Part shown: in pieces, positions 25,688-56,544 of the stretch
Position numbering within the stretch: position 1 is the first letter of the stretch
Layout: the number at the start of each line of letters is the position of its first letter
From: a virus
DNA: 64,000 bases
Virus record (IMG/VR): IMGVR_UViG_3300037743_000151
Location: 7,980 to 71,979 of that record
Reading direction: 5' to 3' (one strand)
Position numbers and translations under genes: made by a program
Notes under the pieces: generated by a model
Seen by the model: the letters and a program-made list of their open reading frames with translations, nothing else
Databases searched by the model: none
Told to the model about the DNA's origin: nothing

Positions 25688-25698
25688 CCGGAATGATC
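25688..25698 (+). promoter_or_regulatory. CCGGAATGATC motif, copy 1
   Basis: Exact 11-mer, 30 nt before ATG 25728. A partial second copy, CCGGAATGCGC, follows. Confidence 0.6.
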
Positions 25699-25727
25699 AC
25701 CCGGAATGCGCTGGCACCCTGCCGCGC

Positions 25728-25997
25728 ATGCTCCTCACCCAGGACGGGCTACGCGCCCTCGAAGGCTTCACCCTCTGCGCCGCACCGCTATACGACGAGG
25801 ACTTCAACCGCGTCGAAGGCAACGACGGCATCATGCTCACCTGCCACCACGGGCACGAGCACTTCTGGCAGAAGCACTGGCCCGGACATGTTGCCGCACC
25901 GCGCCTCCGCGACCTGGTCCTCGTAGCGCAGTCGCACTGGGAGCAGGAGCACCGCGAGACGCAGGCTGAGAACGCGGAAGCCGAGGTGGCCAAGTGA
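25728..25997 (+). CDS. Hypothetical protein
   Basis: ORF; its stop overlaps GTG 25994. Confidence 0.5.
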   Translation: MLLTQDGLRALEGFTLCAAPLYDEDFNRVEGNDGIMLTCHHGHEHFWQKHWPGHVAAPRLRDLVLVAQSHWEQEHRETQAENAEAEVAK

Positions 25998-27019
25998 AGC
26001 GCCTGCTCCTCACCGGGGCGTCTGGGTTCGTCGGCGCCACCGTCCTCGCCCACGTCCTCACCCACACGGACTGGCATGTGACGTGTCCGGTGTCGTACCG
26101 GCACCACGGCGACGGCGCCCGCATCAACGCCGTCCTCGACGCCCAGCCCGACGCCCGCGCCCGGGTCGACGTCATCGCCCACGACCTGGCACTCCCGATC
26201 ACGCCGATCCTCGCCGACCGGATCGGCCCGGTCGACTACGTGTGGAACATTGCCTCCGAATCCCACGTCGACCGCAGCCTGTCGGACCCGGTGTCGTTCG
26301 TGCGGAACAACGTCGAACTCCAGCTGAACATGCTGGAGTACGCCCGCCTCGCGAAGCCCCGCATGTTCCTGCACATGTCGACGGATGAAGTGTTCGGGCC
26401 GGCCGAGCCGGGCTACCGGCATCACGAGTGGGACAGCATCCGCCCGTCGAATCCGTACGCGGCCAGCAAGGCGGCGCAGGAAGCGATCGCGTACTCGTAC
26501 TGGCGCGGGATGTCTGTGCCTTTGATCATCACCAACACGATGAACCTTCTTGCACCTGCGCCACAGGCCGCGGAGAAGTTCATTCCGAAGATCGCCCGCG
26601 CCATCTTCGGCGGCGAGAAGCTCACCGTCCACGCCTCCCCGGACGGCGCCTCCGGGTCACGCTGCTGGGTTGATGCCCGCGACTTCGCCGCCGCCTGGCT
26701 GTGGCTCACCGAGCATTTCGACGGCGACGAACGCCTCACCTACTACCCGACGATGCCCACCGGCCCGCTCAGGTACAACATCGTCGGCGAGGAGGCCACC
26801 AACCTCGACGTGGCGCTGCGGATGGCGGAATCGGCCGGCCGCACGCTGGACTACGAGCTGGTCGACTACCACTCGCAGCGGCCGGGCCACGATCACCGGT
26901 ATGCGCTCGACGGGTCGAAGCTCGCCGAACTGGGGTGGCCCGGCCCGCGGCCGCTGGATGACACGCTGTCGGACATCGTGAAGTGGTACGCCGACAACCC
27001 GCAGTGGCTCACCACGTGA
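25994..27019 (+). CDS. NDP-hexose 4,6-dehydratase-like SDR (RmlB-like)
   Basis: TGASGFVG, STDEVFG, YAASK and RPGHDHRYALDGSKL motifs. Confidence 0.8.
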   Translation: MKRLLLTGASGFVGATVLAHVLTHTDWHVTCPVSYRHHGDGARINAVLDAQPDARARVDVIAHDLALPITPILADRIGPVDYVWNIASESHVDRSLSDPVSFVRNNVELQLNMLEYARLAKPRMFLHMSTDEVFGPAEPGYRHHEWDSIRPSNPYAASKAAQEAIAYSYWRGMSVPLIITNTMNLLAPAPQAAEKFIPKIARAIFGGEKLTVHASPDGASGSRCWVDARDFAAAWLWLTEHFDGDERLTYYPTMPTGPLRYNIVGEEATNLDVALRMAESAGRTLDYELVDYHSQRPGHDHRYALDGSKLAELGWPGPRPLDDTLSDIVKWYADNPQWLTT

Positions 27020-27243
27020 GCACGCCAGTCCCCGGAGAGGGGCCCCACCGGCGGGCGGCTAAAGGCTGTCTGAACGACACCGCGAAGTGCCTCGACGAGA
27101 TCCCAATCGGCCGCGTGAACACCGACGTGATGACGGCGCACGCGGCGAAATCCCAAGTCTTCGCCACAGCCGCTGTCGCCCACGCCCTGCTGGAACTCGG
27201 CGATGTCCTGCGCGCCACGCTGCGCGGAGCAGCCGATGAGTGA
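27016..27243 (+). CDS. Hypothetical small protein
   Basis: GTGA overlap at 27016. Confidence 0.35.
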   Translation: MSTPVPGEGPHRRAAKGCLNDTAKCLDEIPIGRVNTDVMTAHAAKSQVFATAAVAHALLELGDVLRATLRGAADE

Positions 27244-27913
27244 CATCTTCCGCGCCGCGGTGATTCCGACGCGGGACCGTCACGACCTGCTCGCCGACTG
27301 CATCAACTCTGTGGTGGATCAGGTTGACCGGGTCATCGTTATCGACAACCTCTCTGATCCGCCGATCGATCCGGAGCCGTGGCACGGCAAGGTCGGCGTG
27401 GTCGCGATCCCGATCGACCCGCCGAACATCAGCACCCTGTGGAACGTCGGCCTTGCGCTCGCCGACGCATCCGCCCACGCCGAGCAGGCCGACCGGTGGG
27501 ACATCGCCGTCCTCAACTCCGACGTCACCGTCCCACCCGGATGGATCGACGGCCTGTCCACCGCGATGCGCTCCACCACCGCGGTCCTCGCCTACCCCGA
27601 CCAGCACGGCGGCCGACACCAGATCCTCCACACGAAGGCCGAGCCGGTGGACCTGCGGACTCGGATCACGGGCTACGCGTACCTGCTGCGCGGCGAGGCA
27701 GGGCTACGCCTCGACGAGACCCTCGCGTGGTGGTACGGCGACGACGACCTCGACTGGCGTGCCCGCGAGCAAGGCGGCGCGCTCCTCGTACCGGGCCTGG
27801 CCGTCGAACACCGCTGCCCGAACGGCTCGATGTACGAACGGCCGGAGCTGAAGACCCAGGCAGGCCGGGACCGCGAGACCTTCAAAGCGAAGTGGGGCCG
27901 CACCCCATGGTGA
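27236..27913 (+). CDS. Family-2-like glycosyltransferase
   Basis: AAVIPTRDR...VIVIDN...NSD...DDDLDWR pattern. Confidence 0.7.
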   Translation: MSDIFRAAVIPTRDRHDLLADCINSVVDQVDRVIVIDNLSDPPIDPEPWHGKVGVVAIPIDPPNISTLWNVGLALADASAHAEQADRWDIAVLNSDVTVPPGWIDGLSTAMRSTTAVLAYPDQHGGRHQILHTKAEPVDLRTRITGYAYLLRGEAGLRLDETLAWWYGDDDLDWRAREQGGALLVPGLAVEHRCPNGSMYERPELKTQAGRDRETFKAKWGRTPW

Positions 27914-27926
27914 ACAGGAGCACAAG

Positions 27927-28733: not shown

Positions 28734-29242
28734 CGGAGCGGATCTCCGCTGACTCGTGGCGGAAGCACAAGGGGCACGTAGCCCGCTACCAGTACGCCTC
28801 GCAGCATGTGCGGGCGGGCGAGACAGTAAACGACATCGCGTGCGGGGTCGGCTACGGCTCCGGGTTCTTTCTGCAAGGCCCGTACCGGGGCTACGACCGG
28901 CCCGGCGCGCCCGACCAGAGGTTCCCCGGCTCCTTCCACGCAGCGGACCTCAATGACCCCGGGTGGGAGCCCGCGCCGGCGGATGTGACGGTGTGCTTCG
29001 AGACGCTGGAGCATGTCAAGGATCCGGCCCGGCTGGCGCAGGTGATTTCCCGTACGACACGCAGGTTGATCGTCGTGTCGGTGCCGGTGGTGCCGACCAG
29101 GCACATCAACCCGTACCACTTGCACGACTTCACCGCCGAGGAGATCCCGCCGCTGTTCGACGGGTTTGAGATCGCTGATGAGTGGCCGCAGCCGGAGGAG
29201 CTTGCTCACGTGTGGCTGTTCGAACGGAGTAGCAATGCCTGA
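28730..29242 (+). CDS. Class I SAM-dependent methyltransferase
   Basis: NDIACGVGYGSGF motif I and FETLEHV. GTGA overlap. Confidence 0.7.
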   Translation: MTERISADSWRKHKGHVARYQYASQHVRAGETVNDIACGVGYGSGFFLQGPYRGYDRPGAPDQRFPGSFHAADLNDPGWEPAPADVTVCFETLEHVKDPARLAQVISRTTRRLIVVSVPVVPTRHINPYHLHDFTAEEIPPLFDGFEIADEWPQPEELAHVWLFERSSNA

Positions 29243-31783: not shown

Positions 31784-31939
31784 ACTCGCCGCTGCTGAGT
31801 GGCGCCCCTGTGCGCTTCTTCCCGGGGGCGCCGACGGGTCAATGGGGCATGCACAGCCCTGGAGCACGTCCAGCACACGAGGCACCCACCAGACCACGCT
31901 CCGGAACGCGACAGCCCCCACACCCCCGACAATCCCGGC

Positions 31940-33352: not shown

Positions 33353-33606
33353 CGGGCATGAGCATCTGGAGAACGGTCGGCCACGACGGGCCGGAGGTCG
33401 TTGGGATCCCAGACGAGACGGACGCCGTGCACTATCGAGGCGGCGGGGAGGCCACCGCCACCGTCGACGTCGCCGTGACCAGCATGCACGGCGGGGTGCG
33501 CCTCGGTATCGAGTTCGATGGCTCGACGAAGGATGTCCTCCTCGACCGGGAGAACGTGGCGCTGTTGCGTGACCGGCTGACGGTCGTACTGGAGGGTGAG
33601 TCGTGA
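33349..33606 (+). CDS. Hypothetical protein
   Basis: GTGA overlap at 33349 (alternative ATG 33358). Confidence 0.45.
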   Translation: MTGMSIWRTVGHDGPEVVGIPDETDAVHYRGGGEATATVDVAVTSMHGGVRLGIEFDGSTKDVLLDRENVALLRDRLTVVLEGES

Positions 33607-34037
33607 GTCTGTGGTTGCTGCTGCTCGTGATGGCGCTCGCGGTGTACCGGCTTACCCGCTTGGTCGTGGCTGACACGTTCCCGCCGGTGCTGTGGCTGCG
33701 TGACCGGCTTGTCGGTGGGTGGCGTGAGCCGACGATGAAGGAGCAGCATCACGATGCGTTCCCGACCGGGGAGGTCGAGGAGGGCTGCTTCAAGAGCATT
33801 CCAAACCTGGGCATGTTCGGGCTGCTCGACGGTGAGTTGCAGATTTACGGCCGCCGGTGGAAGTGGTCGCCGTTCTGGTTGGCTGATCTGTTGTCGTGTC
33901 CGTTTTGCGCGTCGGGGTGGATTGCTGTCGGGGTGACGGCGGGTGTGTGGGCCACGGTCGGTCTGCCGGTGCCGCTGCTGGTGTGGCTGGCGGTGTGGGC
34001 GGTGGGCGGCCTGTTGGCGTCGCAGGAGTGGGCGTGA
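33603..34037 (+). CDS. DUF1360-like membrane protein
   Basis: Hydrophobic N-terminus, LSCPFCASGWIAVGV, and further transmembrane segments. Confidence 0.6.
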   Translation: MSLWLLLLVMALAVYRLTRLVVADTFPPVLWLRDRLVGGWREPTMKEQHHDAFPTGEVEEGCFKSIPNLGMFGLLDGELQIYGRRWKWSPFWLADLLSCPFCASGWIAVGVTAGVWATVGLPVPLLVWLAVWAVGGLLASQEWA

Positions 34038-34120
34038 CGCCGGAACGCGGGCCGGAGACGGGCCCGTAGCATTCAGGGTGTAGGAGCCGGGCCTTCGGGT
34101 TCCGGGGTGGTGGCGCACAG

Positions 34121-34151
34121 GGGCCGTCCGCAGTGGGCATGCGGACGGCCC
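34121..34151. other. 11-bp stem hairpin
   Basis: GGGCCGTCCGC - 9-nt loop - GCGGACGGCCC. Confidence 0.6.
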
Positions 34152-34197
34152 TCGCTGCTGCTCGGGGTGTGGGAAGGGGCCGCCTCCGTAGAGACGG

Positions 34198-34600
34198 CCC
34201 CACCAAGAAGAGCCACGCCACGCCCTGCCTTGCCTCGCCCTGCCGAGCCATGCGCTGGTCAGCTTAACGGCGAAGGGCTCCACCGAAGTGGAGCCCACCA
34301 AGAAGAGCCTTGCCATACCACGCAATGCCGAGCCGAGCGCTGCCCAACCGAGCGCTGCCTTGCCATGACCAGCCAAGCGGAGGCTAGCCCGAGGGCTTCA
34401 CAGTACCGCCAGAGCCGTCATTCTGAATACATCTCTTCTTTCGGAGTGACACATGACGGTATATATTCGCGTGGTGCCACCGGCACGCTCGGCGTGGCAC
34501 TGCCCGGCAAGCTGAGGCATGGCATGGCCTGGCGGGGCACGGCGGGTCATGGCTAGTCAAGGCCAGGCGGGGTAAGGCACGGCGCGGCTCTTCTTGGCTT
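34198..34600. repeat. Repeat-rich non-coding region with direct and inverted 12-16-mers, degenerate GCCNTGCC/GGCANGGC tracts and an AT-rich core
   Basis: CCCACCAAGAAGAGCC at 34198-34213 and 34294-34309. Inverted GGCTCTTCTTGG at 34586-34597. Hairpin at 34275-34296. AT-rich core at 34421-34470. Confidence 0.8.
34421..34470 (+). promoter_or_regulatory. AT-rich island with a TATATAT element (candidate promoter, or origin/cos core)
   Basis: About 40% GC by hand count in a very GC-rich background. It lies 165 nt upstream of ATG 34635. Confidence 0.4.
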
Positions 34601-34634
34601 GGTTCCCACCACCACACGGCACGGAGGACACCGA

Positions 34635-35207
34635 ATGCAGTTCCGCATCACCATCACTGGCACCGCCGAACTCCTCATGCACAACGCCCGCTTGTCCAAC
34701 CCCATTGACCCCGCAGCCAAAGCGATGAAGGCCGTCACCTCCAAGCGCGTCAAGACCGACGACGACCACGAGGAGTTGGCCCGCCTCGAACACCTCGGCT
34801 CGCTTTACTACGACCCCGAGATCGGACCGTTCGTCCCCGGCCAGAACATCGAACGCGCTCTCGTCGACGCCGCCAAGGTCACCAAGTCCGGCGTCAAGGT
34901 CACACGCGGCGTGTTCATCTCCACCAACGTCAACCCCCTCGCCTACAAGGGGCCGCGCGACATCGACGGCCTGTGGGCAGACGAGAACTTCCGGCACATG
35001 GCATCCGTCAAGGTCCAGCAGAACCGCGTGATGCGCTGCCGCCCCATGTTCCGGACCTGGCGCACCGAGGCGGAAGGCACACTGGACACCCGAGTTCTGT
35101 CCCTCGAAGAACTCCAGGGCATCGCGGACACGGCAGGAGCGATGATCGGTCTCGGTGACTACCGCCCCCGCTACGGCCGCTTCACTGCGGAGGTAACCAA
35201 GCTGTGA
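34635..35207 (+). CDS. Hypothetical protein (190 aa, unknown family)
   Basis: GGAGGA SD before ATG 34635. Composition is protein-like and lower in GC than the neighbours. Confidence 0.6.
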   Translation: MQFRITITGTAELLMHNARLSNPIDPAAKAMKAVTSKRVKTDDDHEELARLEHLGSLYYDPEIGPFVPGQNIERALVDAAKVTKSGVKVTRGVFISTNVNPLAYKGPRDIDGLWADENFRHMASVKVQQNRVMRCRPMFRTWRTEAEGTLDTRVLSLEELQGIADTAGAMIGLGDYRPRYGRFTAEVTKL

Positions 35208-35716
35208 ACGGCGTCAAGACCCGCGTGGACGTCCTGTACGAGCTGTTCCAGCGTGCAGACCTAGTCACTTACGAGCAGGCCGCAGAAGCCCTTGGGCTCG
35301 ACCCGATACAGGACCGGAAAGCCATCCGGGACACCATGGGACGCGTCAGAAGGAAGCTGCTCGCCAGGGATGGGCGGGCGCTCCGTTCCGTCCCAGACGT
35401 CGGCTACCGGATCGCTGAACCGAACGAGCACATCACCCTGTACCGCGAGCGTAAGAAGCGTGGGACAAATCAGCTCGTGACGGGTCGCGACGAGCTGAAA
35501 GGCACTGACCTTTCGAGCCTGACGCAGGAGGGCCGGGATGCTGTCCTGGCGGAGAGTGTCGCGGCATCTCGGATCATCGACTTCATCGTGTCGACGGATC
35601 GTCGCTTGCGGAAGCAGGAGGCGAAGATCGATGAGATCAAGGGTGAAGTGACCCGCAACGCCGAGGAGTCTGCGGAGATCAAGAAACGCCTCACCCAGTT
35701 GGAACAGCCTGGGTAG
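35204..35716 (+). CDS. wHTH-like N-terminus plus coiled-coil protein (unknown; small-terminase-like or regulator)
   Basis: GTGA overlap at 35204. C-terminus: RRLRKQEAKIDEIKGEVTRNAEESAEIKKRLTQLE. Confidence 0.55.
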   Translation: MNGVKTRVDVLYELFQRADLVTYEQAAEALGLDPIQDRKAIRDTMGRVRRKLLARDGRALRSVPDVGYRIAEPNEHITLYRERKKRGTNQLVTGRDELKGTDLSSLTQEGRDAVLAESVAASRIIDFIVSTDRRLRKQEAKIDEIKGEVTRNAEESAEIKKRLTQLEQPG

Positions 35717-35816: not shown

Positions 35817-35842
35817 GGGCCCCCACCTTCGGGTGGGGGCCC
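35817..35842 (+). terminator. Strong stem-loop (11-bp stem, TTCG loop)
   Basis: GGGCCCCCACC TTCG GGTGGGGGCCC. Confidence 0.7.
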
Positions 35843-35852
35843 TTCGCCATGC

Positions 35853-35863
35853 CCGGAATGATC
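35853..35863 (+). promoter_or_regulatory. CCGGAATGATC motif, copy 2
   Basis: Exact 11-mer (13-mer GCCCGGAATGATC shared with copy 4), 54 nt before portal ATG 35917. Confidence 0.6.
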
Positions 35864-35916
35864 TTCTCGGCCGCGCTCTTACCCTCCCCTCGCAGACCGC
35901 GAACAGGGAGACCCGG

Positions 35917-37698
35917 ATGGCCTGGTGGCACACCTTCACCCGACGCGGCACACCCACGCCCACACCCCTCCCCACCCACACCGAACAGCAACCCAACGCA
36001 ATCACCGCCGCCGCAGCACCCGTCTCCAGCCCCCGCACCGACCTCATCCGCAACACCGACGGCTGGCAAGAAGAAGTCTGGGGATTCCACGACACCCTCG
36101 GCGAATTCCGGTACGCCACCGACTGGGAAGCCAAACGCTTCTCCCGCGTCCGCCTCTACGCCGCCAAGCTGGAGCCAGGGGCCGACGAGCCCGTACGCGC
36201 CAAGGCCGGAACCGCCGTCGACCTCATGACGGCGTTCGCTGGTGGCCCCGCCGGACAAGCGCAGATCATGGGCGGCCTCGCCACGCAACTACGGGTCCCC
36301 GGCGAGGGCTACCTCATCGTCGAGAGCGTGAGCGGTATCGAGCAGTGGTCGGTGCGCTCCATCGACGAAGTCCGTGCCGCACGCCAGCGGTACGAGGTCA
36401 TCGACGAGAACAGCCCGCAGTCCGGCAACAACTGGCGCCCCCTCGCCCCCGACTCGATGGCACCGATCCGGGTATGGCGGCCGAACAAGCGCTGGCACCA
36501 CATCGCCGACAGCCCCACCCGCGCCGCGCGTTCCACGATGCGGGAACTGGAGTTGGTGAACCGGCACATCGTTGCCCAGTACCTGTCGCGGCTCGCGTCC
36601 GCCGGTGTCGTCATGTTCCCGTCGGAGGTCACCTTCCCGCAGAAGGAGGAGTTCGCCGACGCGCCGGACCCGTTTGTCGCCGAGTGGATCGAGAACGCGA
36701 GGGTCGCGATCGATCAGCCGGGCACCGCCAGTGCCGTGATCCCGATGCCGATCAAGGTGCCTTCCGAGCTCGTCGAAAAGATCAAGCATCTCGACTTCAC
36801 CCTGAAGATCGACGAGAAGATCATCGAGAAGCGGGACAGCGCCATCAAGCGCCTCGCCTCCCAGCTCAACGTGCCCGCCGAAGTCCTACTCGGCATGGGC
36901 GATTTGAACCACTGGAACGCCTGGAGCAGCGACGAAACCAGCCTCAAAGTCGACGTCGCCCCCGACGCCGAACTCATCTGCCAGGCCATGACCACCGGCT
37001 ACCTCCAGCCCCGCCTCAAAGCATCCGGCGTCGAAGACTGGGCGAACTGGGTCATCTGGTACGACATGTCAGAACTGACCCTGCGCCCCGACCGGTCAGA
37101 CGACGCCATCGCCCTGTACGACCGCCTGGAACTCAACGGCGCAGCCCTCCGCCGCGAAACCGGATTCAACGAAGCCGACAAGCCGACCAACGAGGAACTC
37201 AAAGAGCAGGCCCTCAAGGTCATCATCCACACCCTGCCGTCCGGCGCCGGTAGCGCGCTCACCGAACTCATCGGCGAGCAGGTCACCATCGCCGCGACCG
37301 CACCCATCGCCCCCGGCGAACAACCCGAGCCGGAGCCCCCGCCGGAAGACCGCACACCACCCGACCCCGACATTGCACGCGAGGCGACCGCGCAAGCCCG
37401 CGAGGACCGCATGGTTGCGCAGGCCCGCGAGCTGCACGCCGTCCGGTTCACGGTCGGCCGGCCTACGGAGCTGCTGCACCCGGCGGCGTGTTCGCAGCAC
37501 GCCTACTCCTGCCCGTTCACGCACGCCGCATTGAAGCTCGCCGACCTGCCGAGGCCCGGGACGTCGGGTGTGTATGAGGCGCGCCTGGATCCGTTCGGCC
37601 GGTTCACGATCGGCCGGCATGCGCCGCTGATGGACACGTCCGGCTTCTTCTCGACGATGACTCGGAGCAGTAATGGATTCGCTCGCAGCCGCGGCTGA
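35917..37698 (+). CDS. Portal protein
   Basis: AGGGAGA SD. About 590 aa, positioned before MuF/protease. Typical portal length and composition. Confidence 0.75.
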   Translation: MAWWHTFTRRGTPTPTPLPTHTEQQPNAITAAAAPVSSPRTDLIRNTDGWQEEVWGFHDTLGEFRYATDWEAKRFSRVRLYAAKLEPGADEPVRAKAGTAVDLMTAFAGGPAGQAQIMGGLATQLRVPGEGYLIVESVSGIEQWSVRSIDEVRAARQRYEVIDENSPQSGNNWRPLAPDSMAPIRVWRPNKRWHHIADSPTRAARSTMRELELVNRHIVAQYLSRLASAGVVMFPSEVTFPQKEEFADAPDPFVAEWIENARVAIDQPGTASAVIPMPIKVPSELVEKIKHLDFTLKIDEKIIEKRDSAIKRLASQLNVPAEVLLGMGDLNHWNAWSSDETSLKVDVAPDAELICQAMTTGYLQPRLKASGVEDWANWVIWYDMSELTLRPDRSDDAIALYDRLELNGAALRRETGFNEADKPTNEELKEQALKVIIHTLPSGAGSALTELIGEQVTIAATAPIAPGEQPEPEPPPEDRTPPDPDIAREATAQAREDRMVAQARELHAVRFTVGRPTELLHPAACSQHAYSCPFTHAALKLADLPRPGTSGVYEARLDPFGRFTIGRHAPLMDTSGFFSTMTRSSNGFARSRG

Positions 37699-40600
37699 CG
37701 GCTCGCACATGTCGGGCGCGATGGTGGCGCTGATGCCGACGCCGGAGGATGCGGCCCGGCTGGCGATCGAGGGCGGCGAGGACGCGGAGCAACTGCACCT
37801 GACGCTGTACTTCCTCGGCGACGACGGCGACGCGTGGACCGAGGACCAGCAAGCAGAGCTGATCGGCAGCCTGCGAGCGCTCGCCGCCTCCCAACTATCC
37901 GGGCCCATCACCGGGTTCGCGTTCGGTGCGAACCACTGGAACGCAGGCAGCGACTCCCCGTCGTGGGTGTGGGCCGTCGGCGACGACCGCGACCGGGAGG
38001 CCGACGCACCCTCACTGGCCGCCGCGCGCACGGTCACCACGATGGCGCTGGAGGACATCCACGAGCGGCCGTATCTCCCTGTGCAGCACTCGCCTTGGGT
38101 GCCGCATATCTGTGCCGCGTACTCCGATGAGCTGGACCTCATCATCGCCCTGGAGGAGCGCCTCGGACCGGTCGTCTTCGACCGGATCCGGGTGGCGTTC
38201 GCCGGGGACTACACCGACATCCCCCTCGGCGGCGCGGTGACTGCGGCGGCCGAGTGCACTTGCCCTCCGCAGGCTGCAGCCGAATCGGACAGCGATCCGG
38301 ACTGTCGGCACCATGCGTACAACATCCTGATCGCCGCCGGGGCGTCACTGCGTCGTCAGCCCACCGAGTTGGAGCTCGCCTCCCGCGTCGACTTCGCCGC
38401 CATGGACAAGGCCTGGCACGAAGCCGTCGACAGCACCGTCGAAGCCTGGGCCGACATCCAGACCGCGATGCGAGCCGAGGTCACCGCCAGCATCCAGGCC
38501 GCAGCCGAAGCCGACGACTTGGACAGCCTCGACGGCCTCACCATCGACACCGCTGACGGCGCCGCCCTCCTGATCGCCCGCATGATCGCCTACGCGCGGG
38601 AGGCAGGCGAGCAGCAGCAGGCCGAGGCCGAAGCGCAGGGCGTCAGCGTCCCGGAGTGGTCGCTGGACGATGAGGCGATCACCGCAGCTGCGATCCGGGA
38701 CCGGCTGCGGCAGATCGGCCGGACGGCCGCGCGGGTGCTGGGTGTCGGGCTGGTGCAGTCCGCGGTCCGGCAGGCGATGCGCGTATGGGGCTCCGGGTCG
38801 GCGCAGCAGGTGGCGGCGCAGGTCGACGAGCACCTTGCCGGGCTGTCGGGTGCGGCTGTCGAGGAGCAGGTTGGCGGGGCGATGTCGGCGGCCCAGAACG
38901 AGGGGCGCCTCGCGGTGCTCGCGGTCGCGCCGGCCGCCCTGCACGTGGCCACGGAGGCGCTCGACCTCAACTCATGTAAGCCCTGCCGCGACATCGACGG
39001 CACCGAGTACGACACCCTCACCGCGGCCCGTACCGCTTACCCGTCCGGCGGCTACACGGGCTGTCTCGGCGGCGCGCGCTGTCGGGGCACGCTCGTCACC
39101 GTGTGGCCTCAGGACAGCGAGCAGGCCGCCGCCGGAATGATCTTGGCTGCGAGCGCGGCCACAATACCGCCGACCGACCACGAGCAAGGAGGCGGCAGCG
39201 TGCCGTACAGCATCGTGCAAGACCACCCGGACTGCGGTGCCGACAAGCCGTGGGCCGTCACCAAGGACGCCGACAACAGCCTGATGGGCTGCCACGACAG
39301 CGAGGCCGCAGCCGAGGAGCAGCGCGCCGCCCTGTATGCCGAAGAGGGCGGCATGCCCAACGACATGGACAAGCCCGACGACGAGGACATGGACTACGCA
39401 GGCAAGACCGCCCCCTGGCGTGGCCCCCTCGCCATCGAAGGACAGGTCACCGGCGACGGCCGCGAATTCGCCCCCGAAGCCCTCACCTGGGCCGAACTCC
39501 CCGTACCACTCCGGTGGAACAAGGAAGACTCCCACGGCGGAGAAGCCCGCACCATCGCAGTCAACGTGGGCCGCATCGACAAGATCTGGCGCGACGGCAG
39601 CCTCATCATGGGCGAAGGCGTTCTCGACCTCTCCGACGACGACGGCCGCCGCGTCCACGCCAAGATCGAAGGCAAGTTCCTCCGCGGCGTGTCCATCGAC
39701 GCCGACTCCATCGCCGACGCCGACGTCGAGTTCGTGTGGCCCGAAGACGCCAACGCCGGAACCGAAGAAGGCGAAGAGGGCGACCTGCTGGAGATGCTGT
39801 TCGCCCAGCCGGAGAAAATGATTTTCCACGGCGGACGCATCCGCGCCGCGACCCTCGTCGACATCCCCGCCTTCGCCGAGGCGTACATCGCACTCCTCGA
39901 CGAGGCCGGCGCGGTCGTGGCCGGAGGGCAGCCCATTGGCGAGGCCGCGCTTCAGCTGGCGTTGCAGGAGATGGGTGCGGTAGGCACCCACACCACCGCC
40001 ACCTCCGATGGGCCCTGGGACGCAGGCGTGAACGAGAAGCGCATCGACGGCCCGCTGACGGTCGCGAAGGCGCGGGCGGCGTACGGCTGGTACGACGGCG
40101 CCGCAGTCTCCGACGGCGAACTGCCGAAGTCCGCGGCAAAGTTCCTGCACCACGAGATCAACGCCGACGGAACCGCGGGCGCGGCGAACCTTGCCGCCTG
40201 CTCGGCATCCATCGGCGCCTTGCACGGCGCCCGCGGCGGCACGAGCATCCCGGACGCGGACCGGCGCGGCGTGTACGACCACGTTGCCGGGCACCTGCGG
40301 GACGCGGGGCAGGAGCCGGAGCCGTTCCGTTCCCTGCGTTCCGTCACCGCCAGCGCTCCGGCCTCGCATCCGGCGATGACCGGCATGTGGAAGCCTCCCG
40401 CCGAGTGGTTCAGTGATCCGGATCTGCCGTTCCACTGCGGGATCGTCGTCACCGACCAGGGGCGCCTGTACGGGCATGCGGCGCCGTGGGGCGCCTGCCA
40501 TATCGGGTTCGACGGCGAGTGCGTCACCGTCCCGAGGGAGAGTGAGCACTCGCACTACATGACCGGTGAGACGGTCTGTGACGACGGGTCGCGGGTGGCG

Positions 40601-41044
40601 GTCGGTCAGATCACTGTGGGGACGGGGCATGCGCCGCTGCATTTCGGGGCGCAGCCTGCGGCGGAGCACTACGACAACACGGGCACCGCGGTGGCGGATG
40701 TCGCGGTCGGCAACGACAAGCACGGCATTTGGGTCGCGGGTGCGATCCGTCCGAACGCCGACCCTCTGAGTGTGTACGAGCTGCGGGCATCCGGGCGGGT
40801 GTCGGGTGACTGGCGGCGTATCGGCGGCCAGCTGCGCATGGTCGGACTGCTCGGGGTCAACGTCGCCGGGTTCCTGGAGGAGGCGAAGATGCGGACGTTG
40901 GTTTCCGCTGGGCGGCCTCAGGCGTTGGTGGCGGCGGGTGTTCCGAAGCAGCGGTGGGCCATGTCGAAGGACGAGATGGAGCGTCAGGCCGTGCGGGTCG
41001 TGATGCGGATGCTCAGCCGTCGCGTGCACCCGGGAAGGGGGTGA
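37673..41044 (+). CDS. Polyprotein: 2H-phosphoesterase-like domain + MuF-like minor capsid domain + capsid maturation protease-like region
   Basis: HLTLYF and HICAAY motifs at the N-terminus. MuF signature CKPCRDIDGTEY...GGARCRGTLV. Protease-like segment LPVPLRWNKEDSHGG...LRGVSIDADS. Alternative start ATG 37709. Confidence 0.7.
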   Translation: MDSLAAAADGSHMSGAMVALMPTPEDAARLAIEGGEDAEQLHLTLYFLGDDGDAWTEDQQAELIGSLRALAASQLSGPITGFAFGANHWNAGSDSPSWVWAVGDDRDREADAPSLAAARTVTTMALEDIHERPYLPVQHSPWVPHICAAYSDELDLIIALEERLGPVVFDRIRVAFAGDYTDIPLGGAVTAAAECTCPPQAAAESDSDPDCRHHAYNILIAAGASLRRQPTELELASRVDFAAMDKAWHEAVDSTVEAWADIQTAMRAEVTASIQAAAEADDLDSLDGLTIDTADGAALLIARMIAYAREAGEQQQAEAEAQGVSVPEWSLDDEAITAAAIRDRLRQIGRTAARVLGVGLVQSAVRQAMRVWGSGSAQQVAAQVDEHLAGLSGAAVEEQVGGAMSAAQNEGRLAVLAVAPAALHVATEALDLNSCKPCRDIDGTEYDTLTAARTAYPSGGYTGCLGGARCRGTLVTVWPQDSEQAAAGMILAASAATIPPTDHEQGGGSVPYSIVQDHPDCGADKPWAVTKDADNSLMGCHDSEAAAEEQRAALYAEEGGMPNDMDKPDDEDMDYAGKTAPWRGPLAIEGQVTGDGREFAPEALTWAELPVPLRWNKEDSHGGEARTIAVNVGRIDKIWRDGSLIMGEGVLDLSDDDGRRVHAKIEGKFLRGVSIDADSIADADVEFVWPEDANAGTEEGEEGDLLEMLFAQPEKMIFHGGRIRAATLVDIPAFAEAYIALLDEAGAVVAGGQPIGEAALQLALQEMGAVGTHTTATSDGPWDAGVNEKRIDGPLTVAKARAAYGWYDGAAVSDGELPKSAAKFLHHEINADGTAGAANLAACSASIGALHGARGGTSIPDADRRGVYDHVAGHLRDAGQEPEPFRSLRSVTASAPASHPAMTGMWKPPAEWFSDPDLPFHCGIVVTDQGRLYGHAAPWGACHIGFDGECVTVPRESEHSHYMTGETVCDDGSRVAVGQITVGTGHAPLHFGAQPAAEHYDNTGTAVADVAVGNDKHGIWVAGAIRPNADPLSVYELRASGRVSGDWRRIGGQLRMVGLLGVNVAGFLEEAKMRTLVSAGRPQALVAAGVPKQRWAMSKDEMERQAVRVVMRMLSRRVHPGRG
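39132..39142 (+). promoter_or_regulatory. CCGGAATGATC motif, copy 3 (inside the polyprotein ORF)
   Basis: Exact 11-mer, 58 nt before in-frame GTG 39200, which is preceded by AAGGAGG. Confidence 0.5.
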
Positions 41045-48109: not shown

Positions 48110-48120
48110 CCGGAATGATC
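48110..48120 (+). promoter_or_regulatory. CCGGAATGATC motif, copy 4
   Basis: Exact 11-mer, 29 nt before ATG 48149. Confidence 0.6.
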
Positions 48121-48148
48121 ATGCCCGGGGGCGACCTACCGTCCCACC

Positions 48149-48598
48149 ATGACCGAGCCCACCACCAGCGAGCCGCCCGTCAAGGACTTCAGCCGCCAAC
48201 GCAAGCGGCTCCAGTTCCGCATCGACGACGACCTGTTCGAAGCCGCCCGCGCACTGCCCGGCAAAACCCTCGCACGATTCGCCGCCCGCTTCGCCGACAT
48301 CGAGAACACCCCCGTCACGCAGCAGCTCGACATCTTCGCCGAAGCCCTCAGCATGGTCCTCCTCCCCGAGTCCAACGCCCGCTTCCAAAAGCGACTGGAC
48401 GACCTGGAACAGCCCATCGAACTGGAGCAGGCCAGCGACGTCATCACCTGGCTCCTGGAGGAGTACGGCCTGCGCCCTACCGAGCCGTCCTCGGAATCGT
48501 CCAGTGGGCCGTCCAGCCCGGCATCTGGCACGAACTCGACGGGCGTGCAGCAGCCGCAGGCTTCGATCCCGGCGACCTTCCAGCCGACCGCTTCCTGA
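48149..48598 (+). CDS. Tail assembly chaperone (G-like)
   Basis: Lies directly upstream of the tape measure gene. The Ser-rich tail suggests the productive frame switches. Confidence 0.65.
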   Translation: MTEPTTSEPPVKDFSRQRKRLQFRIDDDLFEAARALPGKTLARFAARFADIENTPVTQQLDIFAEALSMVLLPESNARFQKRLDDLEQPIELEQASDVITWLLEEYGLRPTEPSSESSSGPSSPASGTNSTGVQQPQASIPATFQPTAS

Positions 48599-53007: not shown

Positions 53008-53883
53008 GTGACGTTCGACTTCACCGCCCCGTTCGAGTACCAGCACGGCTGGCGCGACATCGTCAACGACGTCCTCCAGGACGTCGACCAGCGCGCACAG
53101 AACGCGGACCTGACGTCGGTGTGGAGCACGGAGTCACCGTTCTCGATCCTCACCGGGCAGACGGTGGAGATCAAGGCTGTCGCCTCTGACCCGTTCCTCA
53201 ACGCGGTCGCTCCGACAGCGTCCGGCGACGACCCGGACATCGTGTACACCGGCACCGGAACCGTATCGACCACCCTCACCCGGGACTCGGGGCAGTCGAC
53301 CATCATCCGCATCACCTCTGCGGGCGGACCCGCGACGGTGCTGTCGATGCGGCTGCGTGCCCGCGCGGTGCCGGTCGGACACACCATCCAGATCCGCGAG
53401 CAGGACCCCGGATCAATCACCGTCCACGGGCTGCGCACATATCCGCAGGACATTCCCCTCGCCACCGCCAACGATGTGGAGGCGGTCGCGGAGGTGATCG
53501 TCGCGCAGTACGCGACCCGCCGCCCGATCGTGTCGATGCGGATCGTGGCGCAAGATCCGGCGCACCTGGTGGAAATCTTCACCCGGACTCTGTCGGACCG
53601 AATCCACATCCGTAACACGGAACTCGGTATGGACGCGGACTTCTTCATCGAGCAGCTTGAGCACACCATCACCCGCATCGATCCGGACCGGCCGCCGATC
53701 CACGCCCTTGTCCTGGGCTGCGAGAAAGATCGTGACGCCCCGAACAAGAACCCCTTCACGTTCGACAAGACGGGCGCCGGATTCGACGACGGGTTTTTCG
53801 ACCCGATCGCCGCAGACGACCCGGACACCGTATGGATCTGGGACACCCAGTCGGAGTTCGACACCCACGAGTTCGGAACCTGA
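53008..53883 (+). CDS. Minor tail protein
   Basis: GGGGAGG SD and GTG 53008. Confidence 0.55.
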   Translation: MTFDFTAPFEYQHGWRDIVNDVLQDVDQRAQNADLTSVWSTESPFSILTGQTVEIKAVASDPFLNAVAPTASGDDPDIVYTGTGTVSTTLTRDSGQSTIIRITSAGGPATVLSMRLRARAVPVGHTIQIREQDPGSITVHGLRTYPQDIPLATANDVEAVAEVIVAQYATRRPIVSMRIVAQDPAHLVEIFTRTLSDRIHIRNTELGMDADFFIEQLEHTITRIDPDRPPIHALVLGCEKDRDAPNKNPFTFDKTGAGFDDGFFDPIAADDPDTVWIWDTQSEFDTHEFGT

Positions 53884-53892
53884 GGAGGCGTG

Positions 53893-54264
53893 ATGCAACT
53901 GTTGACGGCCACCGCGCGCGCGTATGTCTACAACGGCATGTGGGTGGCGGACTGCCCGCAGGACTGCGGCGGCGTGGAGCCCCTGTTCGAGGCGAAACGA
54001 CGGGGCGGCCCGCGGGTGATCCGCTGCACGCTGTTCCACTGCTCGTACTGCAAGTTCGCGACGAGCCGCATCGACTGGCCGGACAGCGAGCAGGAGATCA
54101 CGGCCGTCCTCGATTTGCGGCCGATCCCTCACAACCGGAACTGGTATCCGGCCGGTCATCCGACGGCGCTCCGGTTCGGAATCCCGCACGGCCAATCCGT
54201 GAGAGACCTACAGGACGAGAACGCCGAGCACGGCGTGCCCGCATCCCCGAGCGAGGTGGCCTGA
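53893..54264 (+). CDS. Hypothetical Cys-rich protein in the tail module
   Basis: AGGAGG SD before ATG 53893. CPQDCGG...CSYCKF. Confidence 0.5.
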   Translation: MQLLTATARAYVYNGMWVADCPQDCGGVEPLFEAKRRGGPRVIRCTLFHCSYCKFATSRIDWPDSEQEITAVLDLRPIPHNRNWYPAGHPTALRFGIPHGQSVRDLQDENAEHGVPASPSEVA

Positions 54265-54800
54265 TGGCTTGGACAGCGCCAATGACGGCGGTCGCAAATA
54301 CCGTATTCACGGCGGCACAGTTCAATACGCATGTTCGAGACAACCTGAACGAAACCGCTCCCGCGAAGGCCACCGCGGCGGGCAGGATCTTCGTCACCAC
54401 CGGCGCCAACTCGATCGCAGAACGGCCGCTCGAAACCGCTGCGATCTCCACACCACAGACCACGACATCCGTCACCTACGCCGACCTAGGCACGATCGGC
54501 CCGTCGGTGACCATCACCACCGGGCCAGCCGCGATCGTGTGGGTCTCCTCGTTCCTACAGAACGACACGTCGGGTGCTTCGAGTCACGTCAGCTTCGCGG
54601 TCACGGGGGCGACGGCGATCGCCGCCTCCGATGTGGAAGCGATCCGCTTCAACGCGTCTACCGTGAGCGACTTCATGCGGGCCGGGATCACGTCGAAGGT
54701 GGTTCTGACCCCGGGTTCCAACACGTTCACGATGAAGTACCGGGTGTCTGGCGGTACGGGGACGTTCGCAAACCGGTCCATCACCGTCATGTCCCTGTGA
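54264..54800 (+). CDS. Minor tail protein
   Basis: MAWTAPMTAVANTVFTAAQFNTHVRDNLNETAPAKAT resembles the N-terminus of actinophage minor tail proteins. Confidence 0.6.
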   Translation: MAWTAPMTAVANTVFTAAQFNTHVRDNLNETAPAKATAAGRIFVTTGANSIAERPLETAAISTPQTTTSVTYADLGTIGPSVTITTGPAAIVWVSSFLQNDTSGASSHVSFAVTGATAIAASDVEAIRFNASTVSDFMRAGITSKVVLTPGSNTFTMKYRVSGGTGTFANRSITVMSL

Positions 54801-54806
54801 GGAAGC

Positions 54807-55310
54807 ATGTATCCCGCCAAGACGATCTACAACATCGAGTGCCCGACGATCCTCGGCCTGTACACCACGGACGAGGTCACCGCGTCGAAGCTGAACGTCA
54901 ACGGCGGTGACCCCGACCTGTACGCCACCATGCTCCGCGTCGTTGTCCCCGTCGCGGCCGGCGACTTCATACGCGCCGAGGGCTGGGCGCGCGTCACCAA
55001 CGACCTGGGCTACAACGTCGGTGTCGGCTGGCACCTGTGGATGTACGACGCCGACAACGGCCTCGGCGCGTCCGGGGTGTGGGCGCAGATCTCCCCGCTG
55101 TGTGGGGAGAACGTCACCCCGAACATGCACCACATGCCACTCGCGATCAAGGCCACCTACCAGGTTCCCGACGCGTGGCCCGAAGACCACCGCGCCGTCG
55201 TCGTGCTCCGTGCCAGCGCGCACTCCACCGCCTGGCAGCCCGGCCACCAGATCACCGTCGACAAGCCTTACGGCTACCTCGAAGCCGAACGCCTGAGGGA
55301 AGGAGTCTGA
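54807..55310 (+). CDS. Hypothetical tail-associated protein
   Basis: ORF between the minor tail genes and the endolysin. Confidence 0.5.
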   Translation: MYPAKTIYNIECPTILGLYTTDEVTASKLNVNGGDPDLYATMLRVVVPVAAGDFIRAEGWARVTNDLGYNVGVGWHLWMYDADNGLGASGVWAQISPLCGENVTPNMHHMPLAIKATYQVPDAWPEDHRAVVVLRASAHSTAWQPGHQITVDKPYGYLEAERLREGV

Positions 55311-55314
55311 CGCC

Positions 55315-56064
55315 ATGGCCGCACCACTCTCCCCAGACAGACTGATCGCGATCCTCAAGGCCGAGGGCGTGAAGGTCTCCGAGTACTCGGGCTGGCGGAC
55401 GCGCGAGCGTGACGACGAGACCGGCAAAACGTTCGGCCCCGTCCACATGATCCTCAACCACCACACCGCGGGCCGCGACGACCTGCACGTGGTGGCTCGC
55501 AACGGCTACAGCGGACTGCCCGCCCCCCTCGCGCACATCTGGCTCGGCCGAACCGGCGTGGCCTGGCTGTGCAGCGCTGGCCGCGCCAACCACGCCGGCC
55601 TCATGGCGCAGAATGCGTACAACGCGTTCCTCAACGAGGCGACCACGCACCCGGCCCCGGCCAAGTCGTCCGGCACGGTCGACGGCAACGACGTCGCCTA
55701 CGGCATCGAGACGGAAAACCGCGGCGACGACAAGGACATCTACCCGCGCGTCCAGTACGACGCCTGGGTACGGATCAACGCCGCGTTCTGCCGCGAGTAC
55801 GAGTGGACGGCCGAGTCGTGCGGCGCCCACAAGGAAACCTCGATCGAGGGCAAGCCGGACCCGCGCGGCCCGGTCGAGGGCTACGGCACCCGCAGCAAGT
55901 TCGACTTCACCCCGGGCCAGTTCCGCAAGGACGTGGCCGAGCGGCTGAAGCACGCCGCCTCGTGGTCGCCCGGCACCGCGCCGCCGGCGCCGAAGGCGCC
56001 GACCGTTGAGGAGCGGCTGGCCGCTCTGGAGAAGCGCGTCACCGCGCTGGAAAAGGGAGCCTGA
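55315..56064 (+). CDS. Endolysin: N-acetylmuramoyl-L-alanine amidase (PGRP/amidase_2-like) with C-terminal coiled coil
   Basis: ILNHHTAG, RANHAG, GIETENRGD and HKETS motifs. Confidence 0.8.
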   Translation: MAAPLSPDRLIAILKAEGVKVSEYSGWRTRERDDETGKTFGPVHMILNHHTAGRDDLHVVARNGYSGLPAPLAHIWLGRTGVAWLCSAGRANHAGLMAQNAYNAFLNEATTHPAPAKSSGTVDGNDVAYGIETENRGDDKDIYPRVQYDAWVRINAAFCREYEWTAESCGAHKETSIEGKPDPRGPVEGYGTRSKFDFTPGQFRKDVAERLKHAASWSPGTAPPAPKAPTVEERLAALEKRVTALEKGA

Positions 56065-56066
56065 CC

Positions 56067-56261
56067 GTGAAGATCTCGAAGTACTGGAAGGCCGTCGTCG
56101 CCGCGCTCGCGGCCGGAGCCGGAGCCGTGACGACGGCAGCGCAGGACGGCCAGATCACCGGCGAGGAGTGGTGGACCGCAGCTGTCGCTGTCCTCGCCGC
56201 GCTCGGACTGACCTGGGCCGTACCGAACAAGCCGTCAACTGGAGAGGACAAGCAGGCATGA
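56067..56261 (+). CDS. Holin-like protein with two transmembrane helices
   Basis: 64 aa with two hydrophobic helices, directly after the endolysin. Confidence 0.6.
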   Translation: MKISKYWKAVVAALAAGAGAVTTAAQDGQITGEEWWTAAVAVLAALGLTWAVPNKPSTGEDKQA

Positions 56262-56542
56262 GCAGCCCCTTGGAAGGACGTATCCGCGCCCTGGCCCGCG
56301 AGGAAGCCACCGCGCTCCTCGGCGTCGGCCAGCCCAACGAGTCGGCGCACGGGACAGCCGAGTTGCAGCAGCAGATCACCGATCTGCACGAGCACCTCCA
56401 TGTGGCCGCCACCAGCATCAGCAGACTGGAACAGCGCATCGACGCACTGGAGAAGGCGCCCGGGCAGACGGACCAGGAGGAACGCCCGACAGCACGGCGC
56501 ACGCCACGCAAGACGGGCGGGATCACATCCACCCCGGAATGA
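56258..56542 (+). CDS. Coiled-coil lysis-cassette accessory protein (putative)
   Basis: ATGA overlap at 56258. Confidence 0.45.
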   Translation: MSSPLEGRIRALAREEATALLGVGQPNESAHGTAELQQQITDLHEHLHVAATSISRLEQRIDALEKAPGQTDQEERPTARRTPRKTGGITSTPE

Positions 56543-56544
56543 TC
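56534..56544 (+). promoter_or_regulatory. CCGGAATGATC motif, copy 5
   Basis: Exact 11-mer, 30 nt before GTG 56574. Its ATG opens a 12-codon uORF that ends in a GTGA overlap with that start. Confidence 0.6.

Follow-up and report, generated by a model that had tools for sequence, protein, structure and literature searches.

The middle promoters of phage T4 keep a host sigma-70-type −10 element, whereas their −35 element is replaced by a MotA box, used with AsiA via region 4 of the sigma factor. In actinobacteria, WhiB-like (Wbl) proteins, phage ones included, bind region 4 of the housekeeping sigma factor (PMC13013590). WhiB bridges this region to WhiA, whose helix-turn-helix (HTH) at the C-terminus reads an asymmetric GACAC upstream of the −35 element, as at the leaderless sepX promoter (PMC10243135), and WhiB7 is a Wbl protein on sigma-A region 4 whose AT-hook reads an AT-rich patch of DNA just upstream of −35 (PMC3905903). 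Short asymmetric repeats of other kinds are known from mycobacteriophages. The stoperators of cluster A are sites of 11–13 bp, present in more than 20 copies genome-wide and oriented with transcription, that act negatively and are read by the immunity repressor (PMC9283540). The start-associated sequences of cluster K (GGGATAGGAGCCC) lie 3–7 bp from the start codon, contain the Shine-Dalgarno (SD) sequence and are found at non-structural genes only (PMC3203893). Here we describe an 11-nt sequence, CCGGAATGATC, that recurs in a 64,000-nt stretch of viral DNA (IMG/VR record IMGVR_UViG_3300037743_000151, positions 7,980 to 71,979; hereafter the window, numbered from its first letter). It is very probably the upstream box, at about −40 to −30, of a lineage-specific family of late promoters in undescribed temperate phages of actinomycetes, of the Streptomyces type.

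The family belongs with the phage-specific promoters that keep a host-type −10 element and have a box of their own in place of −35. Its likeness to the MotA/AsiA system is one of function only, in that both are phage-specific promoter classes with a host-type −10 element and an asymmetric box at a fixed distance from it. Unlike the T4 box, which is centred at −30, the box here would span about −40 to −30, and the genes behind it are late genes of a temperate actinophage with mostly leaderless predicted transcripts. No homolog of MotA or AsiA was found in Pfam and PHROGs scans of the window proteins tested. With the Wbl-dependent promoters (WhiA/WhiB at sepX, and the WhiB7 regulon) the family shares a sigma-A-type −10 element and a short asymmetric element directly upstream of −35, and the phage lineage encodes a conserved Wbl protein (g93) beside an AT-hook-like and winged-helix protein (g94). 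It differs from them in the sequence read, CCGGAAT rather than GACAC or an AT-rich patch, in that g94 is not a WhiA homolog, and in its rigid spacing, the WhiA motif being variable in position and orientation. Literature searches found no described equivalent of the CCGGAATGATC promoter and cultured phages are distant, so that an earlier note on this DNA, which did not recognise the element as a described one, appears to be correct.

That note, made from the sequence of the window, had listed five exact copies of CCGGAATGATC and judged them too many for chance. Exact search recovers the five at the coordinates it gave (25688, 35853, 39132, 48110 and 56534), all on the + strand. The non-coding strand does not carry an equal share: there are 0 exact copies on the − strand of the window. 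The chance expectation is 0.04 copies, and five copies were reached in none of 100 dinucleotide shuffles, which bears out the note's judgement. When two mismatches are allowed there are 37 matches against 19 expected, that is, mainly background. G+C content is 65–72% all along the window, and in a k-mer census no 11-mer apart from CCGGAATGATC combines a low GC content and intergenic enrichment with five or more dispersed copies; the remaining repeated words are GC-rich coding words or tandem repeats within the first gene. On a gene map made from codon log-odds, copies 1, 2 and 4 sit in intergenic gaps of 43–200 nt, copy 5 overlaps the 3′ codons of g90, whose TGA stop codon lies within CCGGAATGATC, and copy 3 is within g70, a MuF/protease gene of 1123 codons. 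The finer details of the note also hold, namely the distances to the start codons (30, 54, 58, 29 and 30 nt), the 13-mer GCCCGGAATGATC common to two copies (copies 2 and 4), the TT after three of the copies (2, 3 and 5) and the AAGGAGG ahead of the GTG at 39200.

A second conserved block, missed by the note, lies 16 nt after CCGGAATGATC (17 nt for copy 3). It is a hexamer with A at its second and T at its sixth position (nAnnnT), and reads CACCCT, TACCCT, CACAAT, TACCGT and TACTGT at copies 1–5 in order. Among all ATGAT sites in the window, a hexamer at 16–17 nt is essentially confined to the five exact copies. At copies 1, 4 and 5 an independently called start codon follows 6–7 nt past the hexamer, and the start-codon distances of 29–30 nt are the sum of 16, 6 and 6 or 7 nt. 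A start codon at this distance coincides with the expected transcript start, and the mRNAs would therefore be leaderless; copies 2 and 3 have a leader with AGGGAG or AAGGAGG instead. The first of three roles suggested in the note was a late-promoter element read by a phage-specified factor, which is the one we favour, but its choice of AATGAT, part of the motif itself, as the −10 hexamer was mistaken, the −10 element being the separate nAnnnT hexamer.

A scan for this architecture, CCGGA with nAnnnT at the family distance, gave 18 + strand and 7 − strand matches, with a background of about 8 per strand. Eight of the + strand matches stand out as intergenic or conserved: the five exact copies and three variants at 25088, 31901 and 58623. 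The first two of these had been missed by the note; the last had been noted earlier as a related sequence (CCGGAATATGCC) and is a genuine variant member, conserved upstream of g95 homologs. A second sequence, GCGAAATGATCTTGG (61984..61998, + strand), had been called a degenerate copy and is rejected as a member: its position is not conserved in relatives, which have unrelated sequence there, no nAnnnT hexamer follows at 16–17 nt, and only a 12-codon open reading frame lies behind it. The eight promoters of the window, together with a hairpin ahead of one of them, are as follows.

P0, 25088..25129, + strand: variant CCGGAAGATCA (25088–25098), 16 nt, CACAAT (25115–25120), 6 nt, ATG 25127 of g50; leaderless geometry.
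P1 (copy 1), 25688..25730, + strand: CCGGAATGATC, 16 nt, CACCCT (25715–25720), 7 nt, ATG 25728 of g51; leaderless geometry.
P2, 31901..31942, + strand: variant CCGGAACGCGA, 16 nt, GACAAT (31928–31933), 6 nt, ATG 31940 of the large terminase gene; leaderless geometry.
Terminator-like hairpin, 35817..35842, + strand: GC-rich, 11-bp stem, UUCG loop, ending 10 nt before P3.
P3 (copy 2), 35853..35885, + strand: CCGGAATGATC, 16 nt, TACCCT (35880–35885), leader of about 25–30 nt, SD AGGGAG, portal ATG 35917.
P4 (copy 3), 39132..39202, + strand: CCGGAATGATC, 17 nt, CACAAT (39160–39165), SD AAGGAGG (39186–39192), in-frame GTG 39200.
P5 (copy 4), 48110..48151, + strand: CCGGAATGATC, 16 nt, TACCGT (48137–48142), 6 nt, ATG 48149 of g79; leaderless geometry.
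P6 (copy 5), 56534..56576, + strand: CCGGAATGATC, 16 nt, TACTGT (56561–56566), 7 nt, GTG 56574 of the glycosyltransferase g91; leaderless geometry.
P7, 58623..58668, + strand: variant CCGGAATATGC, 16 nt, AACACT (58650–58655), palindrome, leader, ATG 58705 of g95.

Five of the eight promoters thus have leaderless geometry and no SD sequence, at the start codons 25127, 25728, 31940, 48149 and 56574, each of which is also the gene start that was called independently. We predict that at these five transcription begins at the A or G of the start codon and that the remaining three produce a leader with an SD sequence, so that most mRNAs of the family would begin exactly at the start codon. Leaderless mRNAs are common in actinobacteria (PMC4633059).

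Conservation and spacing in related phages, a check that the note had proposed, show both the motif and its distance to the hexamer to be kept. Over 100 sequences of related uncultured phages and prophages, Streptomyces prophages among them, have the 11-mer unchanged at orthologous positions. All portal-anchored relatives have the exact 11-mer upstream of the portal gene and inside the MuF/protease gene, and the positions of copies 1 and 4 also carry it wherever the relative's locus reaches, always on the coding strand. Across 29 non-redundant sites, information content is high at the 11-mer and the hexamer and low between them. The portal promoter (25 distinct sequences) has a column identity of 1.00 for the 11-mer, 0.90 for the hexamer, 0.69 for the spacer, of which there are 23 different versions, and 0.51 for the upstream flank. 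In loci anchored on their proteins, where no bias towards the −10 element enters, the hexamer is present at 45 of 46 distinct exact 11-mers. The reverse test gave a similar picture, with the exact motif found 16 nt upstream of 56 of 67 distinct TACCGT-N6/7-ATG/GTG sites and CCGGAACGATC in its place at 2. A scan of IMG/VR viral sequences for the 11-mer followed by N16 and TACNNT gave 116 stretches, of which about 100 are clearly genuine; 73 of the genuine ones have ATG or GTG 6–7 nt past the hexamer and the rest are mainly of the portal type with a leader. In the chaperone class, represented in dozens of relatives, the N-terminus of the protein varies in length by up to about 30 residues while the ATG stays 6–7 nt past the hexamer, a strong indication that the start is set by the promoter.

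The variant members are conserved in the same manner. P0, the first promoter of the late region, was found by the architecture scan, and its ATG at 25127 is the called start of g50; the same layout with an invariant CCGGAAGATCA precedes the g50 homolog in 16 of 16 relatives examined, usually just past a hairpin. About 18 relatives have CCGGA(A/C)N..-16-(G/C)ACAAT-6-ATG ahead of the terminase gene, as at P2. The P1 class in relatives has an invariant CCGGAATG, ATC, ACC, GGG, CGC or AGC as the last 3 nt of the 11-mer, CATCCT or CACCAT as the hexamer and an ATG 7 nt further on. At the P6 site one relative has CCGGAACGATC instead of CCGGAATGATC. The P7 class, seen in about nine distinct relatives, consists of CCGGAAT, 4 variable nt, a 16-nt spacer, nACACT and a palindrome ahead of homologs of g95, a small membrane protein. 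Taken together, orthologous variants reveal a hierarchy of bases in which CCGGA is almost never altered, the following AT(G) is mostly kept with T to C tolerated (CCGGAACGATC), and the last three bases are ATC in strong promoters and ACC, GGG, CGC or AGC in relatives of the copy-1 class, with still other bases in the classes of g95, g50 and the terminase. The motif is genuine and biologically meaningful, very probably as part of a conserved, mostly leaderless promoter family with one intragenic member.

Two promoters have additional sequence features. The P1 spacer (25699–25714) contains a second, direct CCGGAATG at 25701; the orthologous spacers (L004, L158–L173) contain GGATTCC or GGATCC, an inverted CGGAAT, and CGCTGG always comes next. 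This conserved spacer element suggests a second binding event at the first promoter of the sugar cluster. P7 lies in a divergent control region common with g94, and a perfect 12-bp palindrome, CCGTTCGAACGG (58657–58668), directly follows its −10 element and is kept in relatives. A dimeric regulator, which might be g94, probably uses this palindrome as its operator. A half-related GGTTCGAA is present within the P7 spacer, and the palindrome CGTTCGAACG, searched for as a recurring operator, is unique to the P7 region and shows no enrichment.

The motif is limited to one lineage. In the distant lineage L174, whose portal protein is 53% identical, it is absent at both orthologous positions, and the promoter family is therefore lineage-specific. 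The L024/L025 lineage has a g93-like Wbl protein without g94 and only one variant promoter in 20 kb. Both cases are anecdotal, and they fit a putative lineage-specific, phage-encoded reader. Promoters of the family also come and go between close relatives. Homologs of g85 (L028, L031, L212–L214) stand behind a full leaderless family promoter, whereas g85 of the window (53840–53893) has a GAGGAGG and an SD-coupled start with no family promoter, a contrast from which it follows that such promoters are gained and lost.

P4 deserves separate mention because it lies within a gene, g70 (37673–41044), which encodes a MuF/protease fusion. The earlier note had placed this copy inside a polyprotein reading frame, ahead of an in-frame GTG at 39200, and was right to do so. 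In the g70 frame the site reads ...GCC GGA ATG ATC TTG ... ACA ATA..., and several of these codons are rare in the window within their synonymous families (GGA 10%, ACA 4.4%, ATA 1.8%, CAA 13%). The motif and hexamer codons GGA, TTG and ACA are fixed in 20 of 20 distinct relatives, while neighbouring third positions vary (0.45–0.85). Rare codons fixed amid variable third positions indicate that the DNA signal of P4 is selected beyond the protein sequence. Translation from GTG 39200 is predicted to give a 614-aa C-terminal protein that holds the head-maturation protease region. The P4 unit would start inside the MuF/protease gene and lead to an in-frame, protease-containing protein, and its likely purpose is a separate, probably higher output of this part of the fusion.

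The position of the motif relative to the transcript start gives an indication of how the promoters might work. If the leaderless start codon opens at +1 and the discriminator is 7 nt long, the 11-mer occupies −40 to −30, with CCGGA at −40 to −36 and ATGATC at −35 to −30. ATGATC matches TTGACA at three of six positions (T-G-A), and its last bases vary in the weaker members, so the sigma-70 pattern of a TTGACA-like −35 element 16–18 nt before −10 is lacking. A scan of the window from 25 to 64 kb with the Escherichia coli-type sigma-70 consensus found 0 promoters. A sigma-70-type −10 element with A2 and T6, on the other hand, is present 16–17 nt downstream at all eight window sites; its variants are TACCGT, TACCCT, TAGCCT, TACTGT, CACAAT, CATCCT, GACAAT and AACACT, and only A2 and T6 are common to all. 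Sigma-70 transcripts begin 5–9 nt past −10, and the start codons held at 6–7 nt in five window sites and 73 IMG/VR sites are indirect support for such a start. Across the promoter classes no part of the motif is more invariant than CCGGA, whose position assumes the predicted transcription start. CCGGAAT lies just upstream of, and barely overlaps, the place where sigma region 4 reads a −35 hexamer, and from this position together with the poor match to TTGACA it follows that the promoters are probably inactive with the host polymerase alone.

We describe the promoter as a core CCGGAA(T)(G), extended to CCGGAATGATC in the strongest members, a free spacer of 16 nt (rarely 17) and an nAnnnT hexamer, mostly TACCGT or TACCCT, that would be read by region 2 of a housekeeping sigma factor of the sigma-A/HrdB type. 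A factor bound to CCGGAAT would contact region 4 of the same sigma factor and switch the promoters on. On this evidence activation of the late promoters is probably factor-dependent.

The same sequences could be read in another way, with no activator, if a dedicated sigma factor, either phage-encoded and divergent or an alternative one of the host, took CCGGAATGATC as its −35 and TACCGT as its −10 element. Such a factor would be in keeping with a motif that remains extremely invariant while the phage proteins diverge to 45–85% identity, with a hexamer that favours TACCGT or TACCCT beyond the minimal A2 and T6, and with the pentamer GGAAT/GGAAC, which resembles the −35 box of extracytoplasmic function (ECF) sigma factors. 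The SigR/SigH promoter, for instance, is GGAAT-N18-GTT, and GGAAT and GGAAC are typical ECF −35 boxes. The ECF geometry nevertheless fails here, since the bases 16–19 nt past GGAAT are variable spacer and the downstream box starts only 20 nt after the pentamer, with no more than A2 and T6 conserved; an ECF-type reading of GGAAT is thus rejected because the spacing is wrong. Nor do the most invariant bases, CCGGA, lie where they should, being upstream of the seat of region 4 for a sigma factor with a 16–18 nt spacer. Pfam and PHROGs scans of g1–g58, g60–g63, g65, g67–g68 and g91–g103 found no RNA polymerase and no sigma factor or sigma-70 family domain except a sub-threshold region-4 match in g29. 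Finally, among the metagenome matches listed no ordinary cellular genes stand behind the motif, although the power of this comparison is low; these matches comprise the same phage gene classes as before, one new class, at least 25 copies of an unrelated coding sequence and chance matches. Overall we consider a dedicated sigma factor unlikely.

Two observations arose from the metagenome matches. In L284, L314 and L335 the exact promoter follows a TTCCGGAA palindrome and would drive, without a leader, the gene of an HTH protein that resembles excisionases (MAYLSAAHAARYLAVSERTV…), a gene class that has no motif ahead of it in the window. The composite pattern also picks up a single coding sequence (…GCCATGTCCGGAATGATCGCCTCGACNTCGGANATACCGT…) that is highly conserved but unrelated; it is found in L219, L220, L222, L228, L241 and at least about 20 other metagenome loci, on contigs with a G+C content of about 60%. 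Scans of metagenomes with exact patterns can thus be swamped by a single conserved gene.

A repressor is the second possible reader. The note had raised a stoperator-like role, and an operator of this kind could silence late genes in the lysogen, either by occluding −35 or by blocking elongation. Like the cluster A stoperators, the motif is asymmetric, occurs in several copies with a single orientation relative to transcription and is often found in short intergenic gaps. It overlaps the −35 region, the classical position of a repressor, and a monomer that carries a pair of DNA-binding modules is able to read an asymmetric site (PMC9283540); g94 carries such a pair. Against this, stoperators number more than 20 genome-wide and are not tied to a −10 element, whereas there are eight sites here, all in the late region with none in the first 25 kb, and the first base of each is locked 27–28 nt from the −10 hexamer, which would be needless for an elongation block. 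The motif stays constant while the integrase, repressor and cro modules are mosaic (4–6 of 32 loci; tyrosine versus serine integrase). Furthermore, no recognisable −35 element is left when the motif is disregarded, so the polymerase would still need to be recruited. For these reasons a stoperator-like role appears quite improbable.

A third proposal of the note, RNA processing or antitermination, would place the signal on read-through transcripts, where it might direct processing to leaderless ends, load an antiterminator or enhance translation. The motif is indeed on the coding strand and upstream of start codons, and the start-associated sequences of cluster K are a precedent (PMC3203893), being likewise asymmetric, in a single orientation and placed before a subset of starts across subclusters and different genes. 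They differ, however, in lying 3–7 nt from the start with an AGGAG, while the motif lies 29–58 nt upstream, contains no AGGAG or other SD sequence, is paired with a −10 element and precedes structural genes. RNAalifold found 0 conserved pairs across the eight sites, an Rfam search of the window gave no match, and the bases just before the ATG, at the presumed point of cleavage, are not conserved. A bipartite signal, in which an A2/T6 hexamer follows a 16-nt spacer of free sequence, is instead the signature of a DNA promoter. We regard an RNA-level signal as very hard to reconcile with these data.

If the promoters are activated, as we favour, the strongest candidates for the reader are two overlapping genes of the phage.

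g94, 58296–58550, − strand: 84 aa; N-terminal AT-hook-like GRPGRPR, which is invariant, and winged helix (HTH_24).
g93, 57882–58283, − strand: WhiB-like Fe-S protein; basic tail; Zn-ribbon at the C-terminus.

The assignment of g93 is based on its four cysteines and GYWAG turn, in keeping with the Wbl pattern of four Cys ligands and G-[VIY]-W-[GA]-G, a Pfam PF02467 score of 35.9 bits (cut-off 23.6) and matches to PHROG WhiB families; it aligns with the Streptomyces WhiB of the RNA polymerase complex (8dy9) and with WhiB1 (5oay) at E values of about 2–4e-5. The overlapping pair is adjacent in 32 of 32 related loci, next to a glycosyltransferase gene, and no other putative regulator belongs to the conserved core; the integrase, repressor-like and cro-like genes are mosaic (4–6 of 32). 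The pair does not itself stand behind a CCGGAA-type promoter; its upstream region holds a conserved TGCATAAT instead. The position of CCGGAAT fits the geometry of WhiA–WhiB on sigma region 4 as described above, and we infer the link between g94–g93 and the motif by analogy with Wbl systems. It is possible, though we propose it tentatively, that the g94–g93 operon reads CCGGAAT in the manner of WhiA–WhiB or WhiB7. The specific arrangement of a two-protein activator docked on sigma, with g93 on region 4 of the host housekeeping sigma factor and g94 reading CCGGAAT, might also be considered, with rather more reserve. Together the two proteins would redirect the host polymerase to otherwise silent, mostly leaderless promoters.

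Other proteins were examined as readers and set aside. The protein g68 (35204–35716) has a weak OmpR-type winged HTH, but the g67–g68 insert is missing in relatives that bear the motif. An unlikely candidate is g50, which is itself behind P0 and is present (51% identity) in the motif-less L174. The Sigma70_r4 match at the C-terminus of g29 is sub-threshold, lies in a membrane protein and was found in one relative only. Within 10 kb upstream of g50 no universal early gene was found in 14–18 relatives, the most frequent being g43, in 7.

Several points weigh against our interpretation. The numbering of −40 to −30 moves by a few bases if transcription does not start at the start codons, and the label "late" is inferred from gene content only. 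Homologs of g94 differ in their recognition helix, in contrast to the invariant DNA motif, and g94 may do no more than regulate its own expression from the palindrome beside its promoter. Common ancestry confounds the co-occurrence of g94–g93 and the motif. Sampling covered part of the early regions of relatives, and an activator or sigma factor conserved there could have escaped detection. Lastly, the strong preference for TACCGT over any TAnnnT could point to a dedicated sigma factor.

All eight promoters lie between 25.0 and 58.7 kb on the coding strand, and neither the first 25 kb of the window nor the early-region sequence of relatives, about 76 kb in all, contains a member of the family. 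Downstream of them are genes for the virion, for packaging or for glycosylation, among them those of epimerases, glycosyltransferases, the large terminase, portal, protease, major head protein, and the tape measure protein with its gene pair. The function of g50 is unknown, and it is always the first gene of the promoter block; g51 precedes a sugar-nucleotide epimerase/glycosyltransferase cluster, and both epimerase and glycosyltransferase domains were detected downstream of P1. The gene pair that begins with g79, upstream of the tape measure gene, is presumed to encode the tail assembly chaperone. We predict that the promoters split the region from 25 to 59 kb into successive units: g50; the sugar cluster; the terminase; the portal and MuF; the protease, capsid and tail; the chaperone, tape measure and minor tail; a glycosyltransferase; and g95. 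The hairpin before P3 (−38.7 kcal/mol for a 63-nt stretch, z = −2.0) has an equivalent immediately upstream of the portal promoter in relatives, and with so strong a hairpin right before this promoter transcription must restart there. Hairpins upstream of copies 1, 4 and 5 are not significant, copy 2 alone having one.

The region between the terminase and portal genes was also found to be variable. A 144-codon membrane-protein gene of atypical codon usage (33603–34037, + strand) is kept there in most relatives; a reverse reading frame called g66 at this place was a gene-calling error and is replaced by it. The adjoining block, 34040–35716, begins with a non-coding stretch of about 600 nt that contains several GC-rich hairpins and an AT-rich, promoter-like patch (about 34420–34480, TATATT), followed by g67 (34635–35207), a gene of unknown function, and g68, whose product has an OmpR-like winged helix and a long coiled-coil. 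Relatives lack the whole block, and their hairpin directly adjoins the portal promoter. The block looks like a moron inserted along with a promoter and terminators of its own, and is possibly a defence or regulatory cassette.

Duplication has shaped two genes elsewhere. The N-terminal half of g1 (355–1000), a DUF6745 protein, is made up of long tandem repeats encoding QVGDQV, QVWAQV and QVRAQV, which yield many repeated 11–13-mers. The 152-aa product of g35 (18239–18697, − strand), in the early region, is 30–62% identical to an internal segment of g70 and its relatives, and is, as its similarity indicates, a duplicated structural-gene domain in the non-structural arm.

The phage itself is remote from anything in culture. 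Its nearest match among deposited phage DNA is 74% identical over about 540 nt, portal identity to cultured phages is at most 39%, and an exact-protein look-up of the major capsid protein returned no record. Relatives are abundant among uncultured viral contigs and were also found in one metagenome-assembled genome of the Nocardioidaceae and in prophages. Homologs of g94 are present in several Streptomyces genomes, and two loci are prophages beside ordinary Streptomyces genes, with a serine integrase; these prophages carry the promoter. The Streptomyces assemblies GCA_033793215.1 and GCA_014930355.1 are examples of genomes with a relative. A tRNA search of the window detected none. From this gene content and distribution, the lineage forms a family of temperate phages of Streptomyces and allied actinomycetes, none of which has been cultured.

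The integration module has been swapped within the lineage. The window has a tyrosine integrase and a GIY-YIG/HTH protein (60445–61338), and the close Streptomyces prophage relatives L212 and L213 have at 3184–4788 a large serine recombinase, next to which lies a host gene of the ChlI/ComM type. A non-coding block by the integrase and g99 (62005–62050, TATCTCCACTGG..AGCGCCATGCTTCGGACAGCAAAGCGCCCCCGACC) is 75–85% identical in relatives whose flanking genes differ, and may be the attP core or another recombination or regulatory site.

The control of late genes in actinobacteriophages is poorly understood, and there are many phage WhiB-like proteins with almost no assigned targets. The family described here provides an exact, conserved cis-element with eight sites per genome and more than 100 in relatives, from which transcription starts are predicted to the nucleotide. 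In the annotation of this uncultured lineage the promoter could mark transcription units and true leaderless starts, and in Streptomyces the promoters could be put to use as expression parts that are tight, orthogonal and phage-induced. The more interesting question is which factor reads the box, for which a short list of candidates is now available, and the switch is directly testable in inducible Streptomyces prophages. If g94–g93 proves to be the reader, the system would be an actinobacterial counterpart of the T4 strategy of sigma appropriation, built from Wbl parts, and would represent the first defined function of a phage Wbl protein in late-gene control.

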